A DNA stretch of 64,000 bases from Candidatus Vogelbacteria bacterium RIFOXYD1_FULL_44_32 (GCA_001823065.1 MHTJ01000003.1:106869-170868); one strand, 5' to 3'; numbered from the stretch's first letter, positions 5,893 to 29,377 are shown. Program-made: numbers and translations. The notes: generated from the sequence alone by a model not told the origin.

Positions 5893-6016
5893 AGGCGGAG
5901 GGATTTGAAAGCCGCAGGCGCGAAGCCGACCGCAGTAGCGGTCGTTGCCGAGGCAGGGTCGTGAAAATTTTGTTTTGACGAAAACAAAATTATTCCTGAT
6001 CAAATCCCTCCGCCTC
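5893..6016. repeat. nested inverted repeats: 17-bp IR (gaggcggagggatttga / tcaaatccctccgcctc) enclosing an 11-bp IR (aattttgtttt / aaaacaaaatt)
   Basis: Read directly from the sequence. The structure sits at the boundary between the GC-rich phage-like segment and the host-like genes. Confidence 0.6.
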
Positions 6017-6058
6017 AATGATTTCTACCGTACTTAAACTAGTTATAAATTAAAAAAA

Positions 6059-6811
6059 ATGACCACCCAAAAATTTTCCTCTACTGGCAACTTTGGTAAA
6101 TTGGCTGATCAATATAAAGTCGGTCGTAAAGGGGTCCCCGAAGAAGTACTGGATTATCTATGGTCCCATATTAAAAAATCAAAGCCGATGATTCTGGATG
6201 TTGGTTGTGGGACTGGCTTACCCAGTCGACAGCTCGCTGGGCGTGGTGCACTGGTGACGGGAACAGATATTTCTCCGGAAATGATTAGAGCGGCGAAAGA
6301 GAACAGCCAGGAAAATATCTCTTATCTTGTAGCTTCCACTCAAGCTCTACCTTTTCCCGATGAATCATTTGATATTGTTACTTCTTTTAGTGCTTTTCAT
6401 TGGTTTACTGATACCAAGTCTACAAAGGAGATGAAGTGGGTACTAAAACCTGGTGGCCCGATTTTTATTGTAAATAAAAATGATATCGGAGATTTTAGTC
6501 AGGGCTATCGATCTATTTTCCGCCAATATATGACCGAGGATCTCCCTCGTATTAAAAATGGATATAGCCCTGATCAAATCCTCCAAGAAGCGGGTTTTGG
6601 TGATATAAAAAGGACAGTATTTCCGGTGTCTGAATTTTTTACCATAGAGCAAGTTATGGATTACTTTCAGTCGGTAAGTGGTTGGAACTTAGTTCCGCCA
6701 GAGTCTAAGAAAGAAGCCCTCGAGTTACTAAAGGAATATGCGCATGGAAGAGCGGAAAATGGAGTAGTAGAAAGAAAATTGGAGATTATAACTCAACTTG
6801 GATTCAGATAG
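6059..6811 (+). CDS. class I SAM-dependent methyltransferase
   Basis: ILDVGCGTG motif I plus downstream acidic and aromatic motifs. Confidence 0.75.
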   Translation: MTTQKFSSTGNFGKLADQYKVGRKGVPEEVLDYLWSHIKKSKPMILDVGCGTGLPSRQLAGRGALVTGTDISPEMIRAAKENSQENISYLVASTQALPFPDESFDIVTSFSAFHWFTDTKSTKEMKWVLKPGGPIFIVNKNDIGDFSQGYRSIFRQYMTEDLPRIKNGYSPDQILQEAGFGDIKRTVFPVSEFFTIEQVMDYFQSVSGWNLVPPESKKEALELLKEYAHGRAENGVVERKLEIITQLGFR

Positions 6812-24229: not shown

Positions 24230-24526
24230 ACAATTCGTACCAGACTCGAAAAAATTCTTAATTTAAGCCAAAAAGTCGGTTCGAGCACAAGAACAATATA
24301 GACCAGCCTCACGAAAAAGCCCTAAAAATAATAACTTTTTCAGTTTTAAGAGTATTGATATACGGCATACCAAATGACTTGACAAAGTATAAATCTGTGC
24401 TAGTAATAGTACCAGCTCAAAGTACATTAATATCTTGCGATTTTGGCCATATCTTTTAGAGTCTATCTGGGTTTTAAAAGATGTGGCCAATAGTATGACC
24501 ACTTAACAAAAAAAGAGGAAACAGCC

Positions 24527-24871
24527 ATGAAAGAGTTCGTCGTTGGTGTTGCGGTTTTTGTAGGTGTGATTGTTCTGCTTCTTGGTGTCGGTTGGCTCGC
24601 CCAGGGCAACGACTTCTTTATGTACAGGGTGTTCGCACCCAAGTACGAGCAAGTCCGGCGCGAGACATTCGAGCAGTCAAAGGCGTACAACCAGGGTATG
24701 ATTCAGGAATTGCAGAACATGCAGTTCCAGTACGTCAAGGCCGAACCGGCACATCAGAAAGCGCTGGCGTCGATCATCCTACATCGCGCCGCTGACTATC
24801 CCGAAGAGAGTATGCCACCCGATCTCCGCGATTTCATCAAGGGGTTGAAGAGTGCCAAAACCAACTACTAG
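24527..24871 (+). CDS. hypothetical membrane-anchored protein (114 aa), GC-rich islet
   Basis: ORF with an N-terminal TM helix. GC is higher than the flanks. Confidence 0.5.
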   Translation: MKEFVVGVAVFVGVIVLLLGVGWLAQGNDFFMYRVFAPKYEQVRRETFEQSKAYNQGMIQELQNMQFQYVKAEPAHQKALASIILHRAADYPEESMPPDLRDFIKGLKSAKTNY

Positions 24872-24901
24872 TCCACGAAGTGGACGAAAGGAGAATGTCG
24901 A

Positions 24902-25450
24902 ATGAAGAAAAGTATTGCCGTACTATCCCTCTGCCTATGCTCGTTTGTGTTGCTTGGAGCCGAGTCGGATTGTGAACAACGACCCACAAGCGATACCATC
25001 CAGCGCCAACAGCAAGAGGTGCTGTTGCAGGAGGCCACGTCGTCGGTCGGTATGCCCGCGATCAAGAACTTTCGCGAGCGGAAGATCTTGAAGGACATTC
25101 TCGAGCTTCGAGATCAGGAAGGCTTGGTCACCTACACCTACCTTCAGTCGGAGCAAACCGGCAAGCTCATTTACTTAGGAGAGACGATTGGGTATGGTAT
25201 TCCTTACGCTACCCAATTCACTAACCCCCAGAAAATCGCGGGGTCCTACTCCCAAGGAGGGTTTGCTATTCTGCCCCAGGCAGATCCGAATGGTCTGTTC
25301 TCGCCAGCATCGGCCGAAGGGACGTGGGTTCTGTTGAAGGACCCCAATGGCGATGACGTCCGGCCCATTTACTGCGAACCACGCATTGTCGTCTCGCCGT
25401 TTCGGCTGGAGTCGACTGGCCAAGTCGAGGCTGGCCCAGCCGTTAATTAG
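24902..25450 (+). CDS. hypothetical secreted/lipoprotein-like protein (182 aa), GC-rich islet
   Basis: Signal peptide MKKSIAVLSLCLCSFVLLGA. Confidence 0.5.
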   Translation: MKKSIAVLSLCLCSFVLLGAESDCEQRPTSDTIQRQQQEVLLQEATSSVGMPAIKNFRERKILKDILELRDQEGLVTYTYLQSEQTGKLIYLGETIGYGIPYATQFTNPQKIAGSYSQGGFAILPQADPNGLFSPASAEGTWVLLKDPNGDDVRPIYCEPRIVVSPFRLESTGQVEAGPAVN

Positions 25451-25479
25451 TAACGGCGGCTACTATTTGTAAGTCCATC

Positions 25480-25519
25480 GCGTCTCCCCGTAGACTTTTA
25501 TCGGGGAGGCGCTTTTTTG
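25480..25519 (+). terminator. rho-independent terminator
   Basis: gcgtctccccg ... cggggaggcgc stem followed by ttttttg. Confidence 0.65.
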
Positions 25520-25799
25520 TTTGATTAAAGGTATCTTACCAGTGTCATGTCATATTTAGTTACACTCACTCATCTATCACTTCTACCCCACCTCATATAT
25601 CCTGCCCTTAATCATGCAACCAACCTTGGCTCACTATCTTCGAAGAATAATCGTGCCACTTCCGCCAACCATGCCCGCCAGGTTCGACTCGTGATCCGAT
25701 AAGGGGCACACAGTTTAATTAGAAAATTGATCATTTGCCCGCCGTCTCTGGTGGGGGTATAATCCAACTATTAGTAGATTTTTAGCTATTTTTAACATA

Positions 25800-26811: not shown

Positions 26812-27149
26812 GCTTGGGTAGCTCAGTTGGTAGAGCATTCGCCTGACCCTAAAAACTTCGGGCCCTTCCACTGGAAAGTGGATTGAAAAAGTGGGTGAAT
26901 TCGGGGAAAACCGTTTGCTGTATAGTAAGCGACAATCCCGAGCCAAGCCGAGCACCACTTTTGAATTTTATAAACTTCTAAAATTCAAAAGTAGTGCTCG
27001 GAAGGTGTAGAGACTATCCCGAAAGGGAGTACTTCTACTACTGTAGAGGGAAGCGCCCACCTCCAAAATCTATTTATAGAAAGGATGATGATATAGTCCA
27101 AACGCTCTGGAAGAGCGAAGGGTCGGCGGTTCGAACCCGCCCCCAAGCA
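26812..27149 (+). tRNA. tRNA-Phe (anticodon GAA) interrupted by a group I intron after U33 of the anticodon loop
   Basis: The 5' exon (26812..26844) gives the acceptor, D-arm and 5' anticodon stem. The 3' exon (27110..27149) gives GAAGA, GCGAA, the variable loop, T-arm GGCGG-TTCGAAC-CCGCC and acceptor CCCAAGC, which pairs perfectly with the 5' GCTTGGG. The spliced anticodon loop is CUGAAGA. Confidence 0.75.
26845..27109 (+). ncRNA. group I intron (about 265 nt) within tRNA-Phe
   Basis: The 5' exon ends in U and the intron ends in G. The P7 strands are gAGACUAu and AUAGUC (compare Tetrahymena cAGACUA / AUAGUC). The intron has no ORF. Confidence 0.65.
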
Positions 27150-27590
27150 CAAAAGAAGCCCCGAAAGGGGTTTTTCTTTTGTGCTTGGGGAGCAAGCCGT
27201 CTGCTCGGCTTGCGTGCGGGTTCGAAAGACGGAGACATGTCGAGCTTGCGAGACAGTCGAGTCCGGGTAGGAGCCACACAATATTTTAGGAGTGGAGCGA
27301 ACTAAAATATTGATGTGAGCTGACGCCGAACCCGCCCCCAAGCACACACGAAGGCCCCGCAAGGGGTCTTTTTCGTGTGTGCTTGGGGGCGGGTGGGGAA
27401 AGGTCGAAAACCGGGAGGTTTTTGTGGAGGAAGGCAACGAGCGAAGCGAGTGTTGGAAAACCGTGCCCGCCCGCAACGCCTGAGCTTGCGATGGCGGGCG
27501 GGGGTTTCCAAGTTCCCGTCCCCAAGATTAATAAATTAGCGAACTAAAATATTGATGTGAGCTGACACCGAACCCGCCCCCACAAATTTC
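27131..27590 (+). repeat. degenerate tandem repeats (units of about 195 and 245 bp plus a partial third), each starting with a copy of the tRNA-Phe 3' end (cgaacccgcccccaagca) followed by a long hairpin/terminator and ending agcgaactaaaatattgatgtgagctgac
   Basis: Direct comparison of 27131.., 27326.. and 27571... Each unit has a 13-15-bp perfect stem (ccccaagcacaaaag / cttttgtgcttgggg, and the variant with cacacg) around a mini-hairpin and a T-run. Confidence 0.6.
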
Positions 27591-27665
27591 TAATTTGACT
27601 TTTCCACTCCATCAGTTAGATTTTATCCAGGATTTAGAAAAACTTCTAAGAAGGAGGATCTCGTC

Positions 27666-27896
27666 ATGTCTGAGTATTTGAAAGAGGGTCAGTGGATTGC
27701 ACGTGTGGCACTCATTGACCCGAAAAAAGAGAGACAGAAATGTCCCAACTGTGGTTCTGTTGGTCAACTTCGGACGGAATTGAACTATGAGGAAAAAGAA
27801 GTGATCGCTTGCCGTGATTGTTCCTGTGAATTCCTTCCCAAACGCAGATGGTTTTTTTGGAAGGGATTTTTGGTTACCCACGGTATACCATTTTGA
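27666..27896 (+). CDS. small zinc-ribbon protein (76 aa)
   Basis: CPNCG...CRDCSC cysteine pairs. A strong aaggagg SD lies upstream. Confidence 0.5.
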   Translation: MSEYLKEGQWIARVALIDPKKERQKCPNCGSVGQLRTELNYEEKEVIACRDCSCEFLPKRRWFFWKGFLVTHGIPF

Positions 27897-27914
27897 ATCT
27901 TGCTGTTTCAGCAA

Positions 27915-27954
27915 ATCCCCCGCGAGCCTAGGCTCGCGGGGGATTAAATTTTTT
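27915..27954. terminator. rho-independent (bidirectional) terminator
   Basis: atcccccgcgagc-ctag-gctcgcgggggat followed by taaatttttt. Confidence 0.7.
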
Positions 27955-27983
27955 ACTGCTTTGTTTTCACTTTCAATTTTACA

Positions 27984-28898
27984 TCAACAAGGCCCCCGAT
28001 AATTTTCTGGGTCTGGGACTTGTGATTCAGGAATATACCAAATATCACCACAGTGGCCACTTAAATACCAAGAAACTCCCTCACTAGAAACAATGGCTTT
28101 TTCGTTGAGGGTCATAGTAGAGGGGTTTATACCAATCAGTTTCTGATTTTCAAAGTAGACATTAGTTTTGTCTAAACCAAACAGGAGTGAAGAGCCGGGG
28201 AATTTCTTCTCATAAAACTCGTTTGGATTAGCATTTTCTACCTTTTTACCCTCGAAATATATCCCAGTTTTGTCTCTAAAATAACTGTAATTAGACACTG
28301 GTTGGAAAGTATTGGGGTCAGCGCCAACTACCACTTCGGCCTGATAGAAAACTTTGTTTTTATCTTTGGCATAGGGCCATTTTATTAGTTCAAATGTCTT
28401 AGTGTCGGCTTCGGGTAAAGGATGCTTAAAGGTTTCGTAAAAATTTATAATGACACTAATCTTATCGTTTTCCCTTATATAATAACTACCGCCTTTGGGT
28501 GGTATTTCTTTTGGTGAGTAATAAATAGTAAATGTTTCTGGATCCATGTCGGGCACGATTCCTTTGATTCTTGTTGGGCTGTTTTTACTATCTTTTTGGT
28601 AGTAATAGGCAGTGGTAGAATACACGCTGTTTTTATCCTTAAAATATCCGTCACCTATATAGGTAAGAGTTTTCGGGTCCCTAATCTTAATTGTGGTTGT
28701 TGCCCCTCCGTCCCAATCTCTATAAGATAGTATGTTGCCATTAAGTTGGTATTCATCTTCAAAAACTATAGTTTTTTGGGGCCAAAACACATATCCAGTA
28801 CAGAAGATTGCAATTAGAAGTAAACAGACAGCGACCACAATAAACTCTCTTCGATTTAAAAGAGATTTTATTTTTTCTAACAGATTACGAAAATCCAT
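27984..28898 (-). CDS. DKNYY-family membrane-anchored protein
   Basis: Repeated DKN.VY / DKTGIYF / DKTNVYF motifs and an N-terminal TM segment. Confidence 0.65.
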   Translation of the reverse strand: MDFRNLLEKIKSLLNRREFIVVAVCLLLIAIFCTGYVFWPQKTIVFEDEYQLNGNILSYRDWDGGATTTIKIRDPKTLTYIGDGYFKDKNSVYSTTAYYYQKDSKNSPTRIKGIVPDMDPETFTIYYSPKEIPPKGGSYYIRENDKISVIINFYETFKHPLPEADTKTFELIKWPYAKDKNKVFYQAEVVVGADPNTFQPVSNYSYFRDKTGIYFEGKKVENANPNEFYEKKFPGSSLLFGLDKTNVYFENQKLIGINPSTMTLNEKAIVSSEGVSWYLSGHCGDIWYIPESQVPDPENYRGPC

Positions 28899-28915: not shown

Positions 28916-29377
28916 CTACTGTCCCGTCTTCACTTTCAACTTGGTCGATTTGTCTTTATCTATTTTAGGTAGTCTGATTGTCAGCAACCCATTTCTTTCC
29001 GTTGCTTCGGCTTCTTCGGTTTCGACTTCAGCGGGCAGGAGGATAGTGCGTGCAAATGAACCCCAATACAGCTCGCGTTGGAAGTAATCTTCGTCAGCAA
29101 TCGTGCGGACCGCTTCGCGCGTGCCTTTAATCGTCACCATTTCGCGGGTAATATTGATATTTAAATCTTCCGCTTTGACGCCCGCAGCCATAGTTTGAAT
29201 AATAATTTCGCTCGGGGTCTGATAAACATCAACAGCCAGCTCACCTACCTCCTCTTCGGTCCAATCAGCTTGGGTACGAGTTGGCTCGGGGATAATTTCA
29301 GCAAAATCGTCATGATCGTCAGCCACGGAAATCGTGCCAGTTATTCTTTCAAAAAATGAGCGTCGGTCTTTTGCCAT
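28916..29377 (-). CDS. Hsp20/alpha-crystallin small heat-shock protein
   Basis: Alpha-crystallin domain with GLLTIRLPK near the C-terminus. Confidence 0.85.
   Translation of the reverse strand: MAKDRRSFFERITGTISVADDHDDFAEIIPEPTRTQADWTEEEVGELAVDVYQTPSEIIIQTMAAGVKAEDLNINITREMVTIKGTREAVRTIADEDYFQRELYWGSFARTILLPAEVETEEAEATERNGLLTIRLPKIDKDKSTKLKVKTGQ

Follow-up and report, generated by a model that had tools for sequence, protein, structure and literature searches.

Small gene-less hairpin modules bracketed by copies of a tRNA 3' end behind tRNA-Phe in a Candidatus Vogelbacteria genome

The tRNA-Phe gene and its surroundings

The window (the whole 64,000-nt stretch analyzed here) comes from Candidatus Vogelbacteria bacterium RIFOXYD1_FULL_44_32 (GCA_001823065.1 MHTJ01000003.1:106869-170868) and carries a tRNA-Phe(GAA) gene that is interrupted by a group I intron. 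Exon 1 (tRNA nt 1-33) occupies 26812-26844 (+), the 265-nt intron between tRNA nt 33 and 34 occupies 26845-27109 (+; Rfam RF00028, 55.2 bits, E = 1.5e-12), and exon 2 lies at 27110-27149 (+). When the exons are joined, ARAGORN recognizes a 73-nt tRNA-Phe, identical in sequence to the uninterrupted tRNA-Phe of the relative L029. Because the intron splits the gene, ARAGORN overlooks it on the unspliced sequence and calls no tRNA near the array described below, an omission that matters for annotation of the region. The final 18 nt of exon 2 (27132-27149; copy F1), CGAACCCGCCCCCAAGCA, span the segment from the middle of the T-loop to the discriminator base.

The gene order lepA ... tRNA-Gly, tRNA-Arg, tRNA-Phe, hsp20, prsW, valS is conserved, so the loci can be compared between relatives. 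For several further Hsp20 relatives the contigs ended at hsp20 or directly behind a conserved 207-aa gene. Downstream of the array the window has a promoter-like site (27595-27622, +) and a 76-aa zinc-ribbon ORF (27666-27896, +), with a diverged 80-aa counterpart in L021; a homologue search with the 76-aa protein returned only itself. Between the zinc-ribbon gene and hsp20 lies a bidirectional terminator (27914-27945) that is 100% identical in L021 (2400-2431); L008 has a variant of it with another stem sequence (6766-6800). The 76/80-aa ORFs beside this conserved terminator are almost unalignable.

The intron is variably present in close relatives, being found in L008 (6428-6657), L011 and L016 and lacking in L019 and L029. 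The introns of the window and L008 are 99.6% identical despite saturated synonymous sites, and the former departs from the latter by a long hairpin extension that resembles a P6 element (26948-27001, +). Short Logan contigs from three samples stop at the intron boundaries, which suggests within-population polymorphism of the tRNA-Phe intron. Immediately upstream of tRNA-Phe, L008 encodes a cysteine-rich 124-aa ORF (5926-6300, minus strand) with a weak match to HNH endonucleases (E = 0.0014, below the cut-off), and a GIY-YIG ORF lies near tRNA-Gly in L011 (9560-9832); both might be free-standing homing endonucleases within the hotspot.

Anatomy of the array

Two and a half small non-coding hairpin modules follow tRNA-Phe directly, bracketed by copies of the tRNA 3' end. 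The original prediction held that the last 18 nt of the tRNA recur in a tandem array, and they do: CGAACCCGCCCCCAAGCA is repeated exactly at 27327-27344 and over 14 of its 18 nt at 27569-27582. Allowing up to three mismatches, there are five tRNA-end matches, two of them inverted, against 0.08 expected. A second repeat had been given as an identical 30-mer closing each unit; the repetition is real, at a length of 29 nt (AGCGAACTAAAATATTGATGTGAGCTGAC, exact at 27296 and 27538; 0 expected), and together with the tRNA-end core it makes up a 45-nt repeat with 98% identity. The units are spaced at 195 nt, as had been estimated, and at 242 nt rather than about 245.

Units A and B have about 65 nt in common at the left and 45 nt at the right. 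Their interiors are unrelated, so they are not the homologous but divergent repeats first described; they are different module types. Unit size is uniform at 173-224 nt, and no unit contains a conserved ORF. The long minus-strand ORFs that cover the array are spurious, as had been supposed: they are not conserved, and the alignment with L029 places indels of 10, 10, 8 and 10 nt inside them. The array sequence is 100% identical in three independent assemblies, which excludes the assembly error that had been considered.

GC content in the array is 55%, compared with about 44% in its surroundings. The array folds far more stably than shuffled sequences (z = -14.6 as RNA), and the two tRNA-end hairpins, H_A and H_B, each fold as DNA with z = -10.4. 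Folding is equally stable on the plus and minus strands and for this reason does not discriminate between RNA and DNA as the selected structure.

After F1, and again after F2, come a GC mini-hairpin resembling a terminator, a T-run and the tRNA end in reverse complement. Every unit has such an inverted copy of the local tRNA end, a feature that had previously escaped attention. The perfect arms are longer than the 13-15 bp first given, at 17 bp for F1 (27141-27157/27174-27190; 28 bp when extended around an embedded hairpin) and 23 bp for F2 (27330-27352/27372-27394). The expectation that a hairpin follows each copy holds for the first two; the third strong copy, F5, has no tRNA-end hairpin partner, merely a 6-bp AT stem.

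Unit A (27150-27326) comprises three hairpins and ends at the right in AGCGAA...GTGAGCTGAC. Hairpin H_A (27130-27226; -47.5 kcal/mol) pairs the T-loop-to-3'-end strand of the tRNA with the inverted copy, so that, as predicted, the tRNA's own 3' strand serves as one arm; its outer arms are 27130-27140/27216-27226 and the 17-bp stem lies within them. It encloses a terminator-like GC mini-hairpin and T-run (27154-27180, of which a terminator scan caught 27154-27175), and its 3' arm contains hairpin a (GCAAGCCG/CGGCTTGC, 27192-27213). The architecture of H_A recurs in L029. Hairpin b (27230-27265) is followed by hairpin c and the right end of the unit (27266-27326), which includes the first 29-mer (27296-27324) and has AGCGAA and GTGAGCTGAC as conserved motifs. 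Hairpin c has an AT-rich loop peculiar to the window genome, and L029 retains GAGTCCGGGTAGGAGCCAC ... AGCGAA ... GTGAGCTGACAC directly before its F2. F2 of the window (27327-27344, +) repeats the last 18 nt of the tRNA exactly and belongs to no tRNA; an identical copy occupies this place in L029.

Unit B (27345-27527) begins within hairpin H_B (27330-27394), in which F2 pairs with its inverted copy to give the 23-bp arms on either side of the mini-hairpin GGCCCCGCAAGGGGTC and a T-run. Module B (27395-27511) consists of hairpin 1 (27405-27424), the purine tract GTGGAGGAAGGCA (27424-27436), hairpin 2 with GCGAAGC (27437-27451) and hairpin 3 (27453-27511), which has an inner palindrome at 27466-27502. 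Two more degenerate tRNA-end copies occur in unit B, at 27466 and 27515; the unit closes at F4 (TTCCCGTCCCCAAGA, 27513-27527, +), whose counterpart in L029 is AACCCTCCCCAAGCA, there followed by the native terminator.

Beyond F4 lies the remnant of a third, A-like unit (27528-27568, +), a right end only, which contains the second 29-mer (27538-27566) and has a shorter version in L021. The last tRNA-end copy, F5 (27569-27583, +; 14/18 nt), passes into flank without an inverted copy. The form of an intrinsic terminator (GC-rich stem-loop and T-run) was detected by scan in the inner hairpin of H_A and by reading in H_B and in the L029 equivalents; termination itself is a prediction.

Related modules at tRNA-Phe and tRNA-Arg

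The homologous loci of relatives, which had been proposed as an informative comparison, differ in content. In L029, with an Hsp20 of 78% identity, tRNA-Phe lacks an intron and precedes the same array, A then B, with an exact F2 and a final tRNA-end copy that adjoins the native terminator; the A-then-B stacking order is thus common to the window and L029. L021 has unit B, a third-unit remnant and the zinc-ribbon gene, and L008 has tRNA-Phe, the intron and hairpin B alone. At tRNA-Phe of L011, L016 and L019 there are ordinary terminators and no module, so that modules are scattered unevenly among close relatives. At tRNA-Phe both L008 and L011 have a tRNA-end hairpin unaccompanied by a module. 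H_B is 100% identical in L008 and L021.

Homologues of module B were recovered by nhmmer in L021, L009 and L011, along with the window's own copy (E = 1e-26 to 1e-34); the homologue in L029 was recognized by reading and alignment, outside the nhmmer hits. Within the 64-kb window nhmmer found no further copy, and one locus per genome was seen.

Module B is also located 3' of tRNA-Arg(CCT) in L009 and L011, where a hairpin of the tRNA-Arg 3' end with its inverted copy comes before it and a direct copy of the tRNA-Arg end after it, so that each module copy carries direct and inverted copies of the end of its own tRNA, Phe or Arg. An empty tRNA-Arg site is seen in L008, where the tRNA is followed by CCAGATTGTCTTTTTGTTAATCGGG; in the filled site of L009 the tRNA-Arg is followed by a 173-nt insert, TCCGGCCAGGGGCA and then the same native flank as in L008. 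Over a 60-nt stretch of hairpin 3 a Phe copy and an Arg copy are 98% identical (window 27452-27511 and L009 5810-5869).

Across the compared loci, inverted 3'-end copies with z of at least 6 occur at 5/20 tRNA genes, four with modules and the fifth being tRNA-Phe of L008 with hairpin B alone. Direct repeats with z of at least 8 occur at three of these five genes only. The remaining tRNA genes lie within about +/-2, apart from one gene whose direct repeat reaches z 3.4. How far the inverted copies extend varies (to nt 53, 54, 59 and about 61). The inverted copy fits the upstream tRNA-end copy, and the displaced downstream copy decays (L011; F4/F5 of the window; F3 of L029).

L029 lacks the inner palindrome of hairpin 3. 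Elsewhere this palindrome is of two types that are unrelated and do not sort by tRNA target, a pattern that points to exchange or nested insertion. The palindromes, of about 35 nt, sit in a GTG loop (window 27466-27502 and the equivalents in L021/L011). The type found in the window and L009 is similar to a decayed end of tRNA-Phe together with the complement of that end (p about 0.01-0.05).

Contig breaks fall in or near tRNA-end hairpins in several independent assemblies (the start of L021; the end of L003, at window 27186; the ends of L009 and L010). Breaks at these palindromes are consistent with strain-level variation or with assembly difficulty.

Conservation and compensatory change

At four-fold synonymous sites of hsp20 the window is 32-41% identical to every relative, that is, saturated. 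Unit A is 86% identical to that of L029, and overall module identity is 86-100% across these saturated genomes, a level that, on sequence comparison, is far above neutral. In the stems of unit A five base pairs are changed on both sides (two in hairpin a, three in hairpin b, relative to L029) and none is broken; slid controls gave 0. Stem sequences in hairpins 1 and 2 of module B differ between genomes and the pairing is kept, and the purine tract GTGGAGGAAGGCA is conserved. The mini-hairpin and T-run are likewise kept in H_A and H_B, in the window and in L029, despite differing sequences. The 45-nt right-end repeat, 98% identical within the genome and diverged in L021, suggests gene conversion.

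Uniform size, lack of genes and conservation together indicate that the units are complete entities rather than deletion remnants. The modules give the appearance of a conserved family of insertion elements, devoid of genes and directed at tRNA ends, rather than of a decaying scar.

Origin of the modules

All modules follow one layout. A terminator-like mini-hairpin comes right after the discriminator base and is followed by the reverse complement of the local tRNA 3' end, so that the tRNA end and the module start form a hairpin of 16-28 bp; two or three conserved hairpins come next, and the module terminates in a direct copy of the T-loop-to-A73 segment of the tRNA. This anatomy, the membership of a family, the empty and filled sites and the conservation with compensation can be read directly from the compared loci.

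We tentatively interpret the stretch as a stack of gene-less insertion modules on the tRNA-Phe 3' end, namely A, B and the right end of a third, that would have entered by serial site-specific recombination. This interpretation draws on how the repeats are arranged, on the empty and filled sites and on the way the units stack. A recombination mechanism, a role for the hairpin and mobility in trans are what we infer for it. Each module would enter by site-specific recombination in the T-loop-to-3'-end segment, like integrase-borne islands, and would bring a replacement tRNA 3' end and terminator, displacing the earlier 3' end downstream. Since each insertion pushes the earlier 3' end downstream, newer units would be nearer the tRNA. 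The modules encode nothing, so any recombinase would act in trans. The hairpin of tRNA end and complement would most likely be the module's attachment site, and its use in a folded single-stranded form is a speculative extension of the model.

The original prediction had suggested a relic of serial integration and excision. The serial integration part agrees with repeats that bracket inserted DNA and extend from T-loop to discriminator, with the empty/filled pair of L008 and L009 and with the serial stacking. The relic part does not fit: the units are not decaying leftovers of large elements but discrete and gene-less, 86-100% conserved, with compensatory stems and a presence in several species.

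A recombinase or partner element was sought in several ways. Pfam searches found no integrase, transposase or Rep gene in the array neighbours or among the 38 window ORFs screened, and the integrase or element sharing the att core that had been envisaged was found neither nearby nor in the scanned collections; no integrase turned up near the array or in any of them. Eight viral-contig scans, one metagenome scan and blastn against phages and plasmids gave no autonomous element with the junction, the exact-match scans being insensitive, nor did they yield a helper element with the same att for att-flanked modules without recombination genes. With neither recombinase nor autonomous partner found, the insertion step is inferred. 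Matches to the right-end/core junction in the metagenome scan were two chance hits in unrelated high-GC DNA, and matches to the purine-tract motif in the viral scan were four chance hits in coding DNA.

Further points speak against serial insertion. A duplex circle of 180-220 bp would be awkward as an intermediate for a classical integrase, a fixed attP poorly explains Phe-specific and Arg-specific ends on the same module, and compensatory evolution with presence in highly diverged species would also suit an RNA useful to the host. The last point leads to a serious rival, which gains weight from the lack of a recombinase in the window and of a partner in the scans and from the single locus seen per genome: the units could be structured RNAs or terminator-insulators of use to the host, located in the 3' trailer of the tRNA, transcribed together with it or behind it and maintained by selection, with the tRNA-end copies serving folding or processing. 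Conservation far beyond the saturated neutral level, compensatory substitutions in stems, the conserved single-stranded purine tract, the mini-hairpin and T-run maintained despite sequence differences and the raised GC content would all be expected of such a trailer RNA. We nevertheless consider it rather unlikely. The modules are patchy among close relatives, with clean empty sites, and the same module stands behind two tRNAs, each time with that tRNA's own end repeats. On the plus strand a T-run lies upstream of each module body, and transcription of the body would require read-through; hairpin 3 can lose or exchange its inner palindrome, and folding has no strand preference. A search of Rfam 15 over 27150-27590 also yielded only sub-threshold matches at E <= 1 (miRNA-family, ctRNA and tmRNA models), far below gathering scores.

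A more radical variant of insertion, which we hold to be doubtful, would make the modules a previously undescribed class: recombinase-less, hairpin-structured CPR cassettes that would home to tRNA 3' ends through an internal target-complementary segment (a fold-back or guide-like attachment site) and move as single-stranded DNA or RNA, the target segment being re-written on a move from Phe to Arg.

The stretch could also have arisen without mobile DNA, by local growth at the tRNA terminator, where replication would slip or switch templates (quasi-palindrome extension and unequal crossing-over). Palindromes nested in hairpin loops (hairpin a in H_A, the inner palindrome of hairpin 3, the P6 extension of the intron), the tRNA-Phe genes of L008 and L011 with a tRNA-end hairpin but no module, and the right-end repeat that is homogeneous within the genome and diverged in L021 are what such growth might leave behind. 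It cannot, however, place homologous 120-nt modules with matching ends behind two tRNA genes in different genomes, and it leaves unexplained both the coincidence of repeat boundaries with T-loop and discriminator base and the conservation across saturated divergence; we regard it as one of the less likely explanations and an improbable one. Less likely too, and very improbable in our judgement, is that the units are neutral attL- or attR-proximal leftovers of large prophages or islands once at tRNA-Phe and later deleted, for although att-like repeats and stacking fit the partial tRNAs of tycheposons (bioRxiv 10.1101/2020.12.28.424599), independent deletions would not give a uniform 173-224 nt at five loci, neutral DNA should be randomized rather than 86-100% identical with compensatory changes, and no integrase fragment is present.

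Four further readings were rejected. A tRNA-like minihelix, made of the inverted copy, the module in place of a T-loop and the downstream copy, conflicts with the inverted copy always matching the upstream copy and with the decay of the downstream one. Reverse transcription primed by a tRNA, with the inverted copy as primer-binding site, is contradicted by uncopied CCA, variable extents, the lack of a stop at position 58 and the lack of a reverse transcriptase. For a decayed tandem duplicate of the tRNA gene, similarity to the tRNA body upstream of the repeats is marginal (p = 0.008-0.4). An omegaRNA/TnpB scaffold with guide, or an IS200/IS605 PATE, does not apply, as such elements make no target duplication and TnpA/TnpB are absent here.

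Relation to known elements

The serial-insertion model was compared with known systems. In the tycheposons of Prochlorococcus, serial integration pushes older elements outward and leaves partial tRNAs (bioRxiv 10.1101/2020.12.28.424599). As in islands and prophages integrated by tyrosine integrases, the direct repeat in our modules is the 3' part of a tRNA from the T-loop onward, the gene is restored, the displaced copy decays and newer insertions would adjoin the tRNA. Unlike such islands, the modules are 175-225 nt long, gene-less and integrase-less, possess an inverted tRNA-end copy and have a hairpin interior instead of cargo; the systematic inverted copy of the local tRNA end is the unusual feature. 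With regard to att sites, the repeat is the 3' part of an intact tRNA gene at tRNA-Phe and at tRNA-Arg of L009, and the native flank follows the distal repeat in the comparison of empty L008 and filled L009 at tRNA-Arg. No tyrosine or serine recombinase lies in or beside the element, as judged from units without a conserved ORF and from the Pfam screen of the 38 window ORFs.

CIMEs of streptococcal ICEs and satellite-type elements are similar in being bounded by att repeats without recombination genes, and are presumed to be mobilized in trans and accreted in tandem. Here, by contrast, no cognate autonomous element is known, and the modules are an order of magnitude smaller, with structure kept by compensatory change. 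The modules are best filed as att-flanked recombinase-less insertion elements, so far specific to Vogelbacteria-like CPR genomes.

The attP of CTXphi and other IMEX, as well as integron attC sites, act as folded single-strand attachment sites, and repeated integrations can stack. Our modules are comparable in that one junction is a site-spacer-inverted site hairpin that mimics a duplex site and the other junction a single site. They differ in that the target is a tRNA end rather than dif or attI, with no link to XerCD or IntI, and a single-stranded intermediate is conjectural. Assignment to integron attC or CALIN was rejected: the hairpin ends GCCGAAC / GTTCGAA violate R''(RYYYAAC)/R'(GTTRRRY), and the Pfam scans detected no IntI.

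REP/BIME sequences are also GC-rich nested palindromes downstream of genes, mosaic and variable between strains; REPs, however, are dispersed in many copies and are not bracketed by the 3' end of the upstream gene, as opposed to the one locus seen here. Casposons (Cas1 transposons) insert at tRNA gene 3' ends with 14-15-bp target duplications and can form tandem arrays. Their terminal inverted repeats and their genes for Cas1 and a polymerase have no counterpart in the modules. A MITE was rejected since the sole inverted repeats are the tRNA-end copies and the duplication is 14-18 nt long, bounded by tRNA landmarks. As to dispersed copies, the 64-kb window, roughly a tenth of the genome, has no other one.

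A hotspot for small cassettes

CPR/Patescibacteria genomes are tiny and are regarded as poor in classical mobile elements. The lepA-valS region is a hotspot in this clade, where tRNA genes and even hsp20 gain small cassettes with copies of the target 3' end. The gene-less family of about 200 nt would represent a minimal mobile element directed at tRNAs, with an unusual hairpin as its attachment site, or else a new kind of structured RNA linked to tRNAs. Whichever of the two applies, it would offer a concrete way into gene flow and genome plasticity in CPR organisms.

Between hsp20 and its terminator the window has a DKNYY-family gene (27984-28898, minus strand) that L008 and L021 do not have. 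It is flanked by a degenerate duplicate of the final ~26 nt of hsp20 (27954-27979 and 28917-28942; p about 0.02). As a coding cassette placed at the 3' end of a gene in the manner of the tRNA modules, it was counted in favour of serial insertion.

Two small ORFs (114 and 182 aa) lie at 24232-25799, between tRNA-Arg(CCT) and a conserved 207-aa gene, and are lacking in L008 and L009. A putative relic of the tRNA-Arg end behind this two-gene cassette (25682-25710) was rejected as not significant alone (p = 0.18). Adjoining tRNA-Ser and tRNA-Glu, the segment 35650-42065 encodes a 1061-aa helicase of PLD-nuclease/SNF2 type and, after it, a 1075-aa methylase resembling Eco57I/MmeI, and is probably a restriction-modification or defence island.
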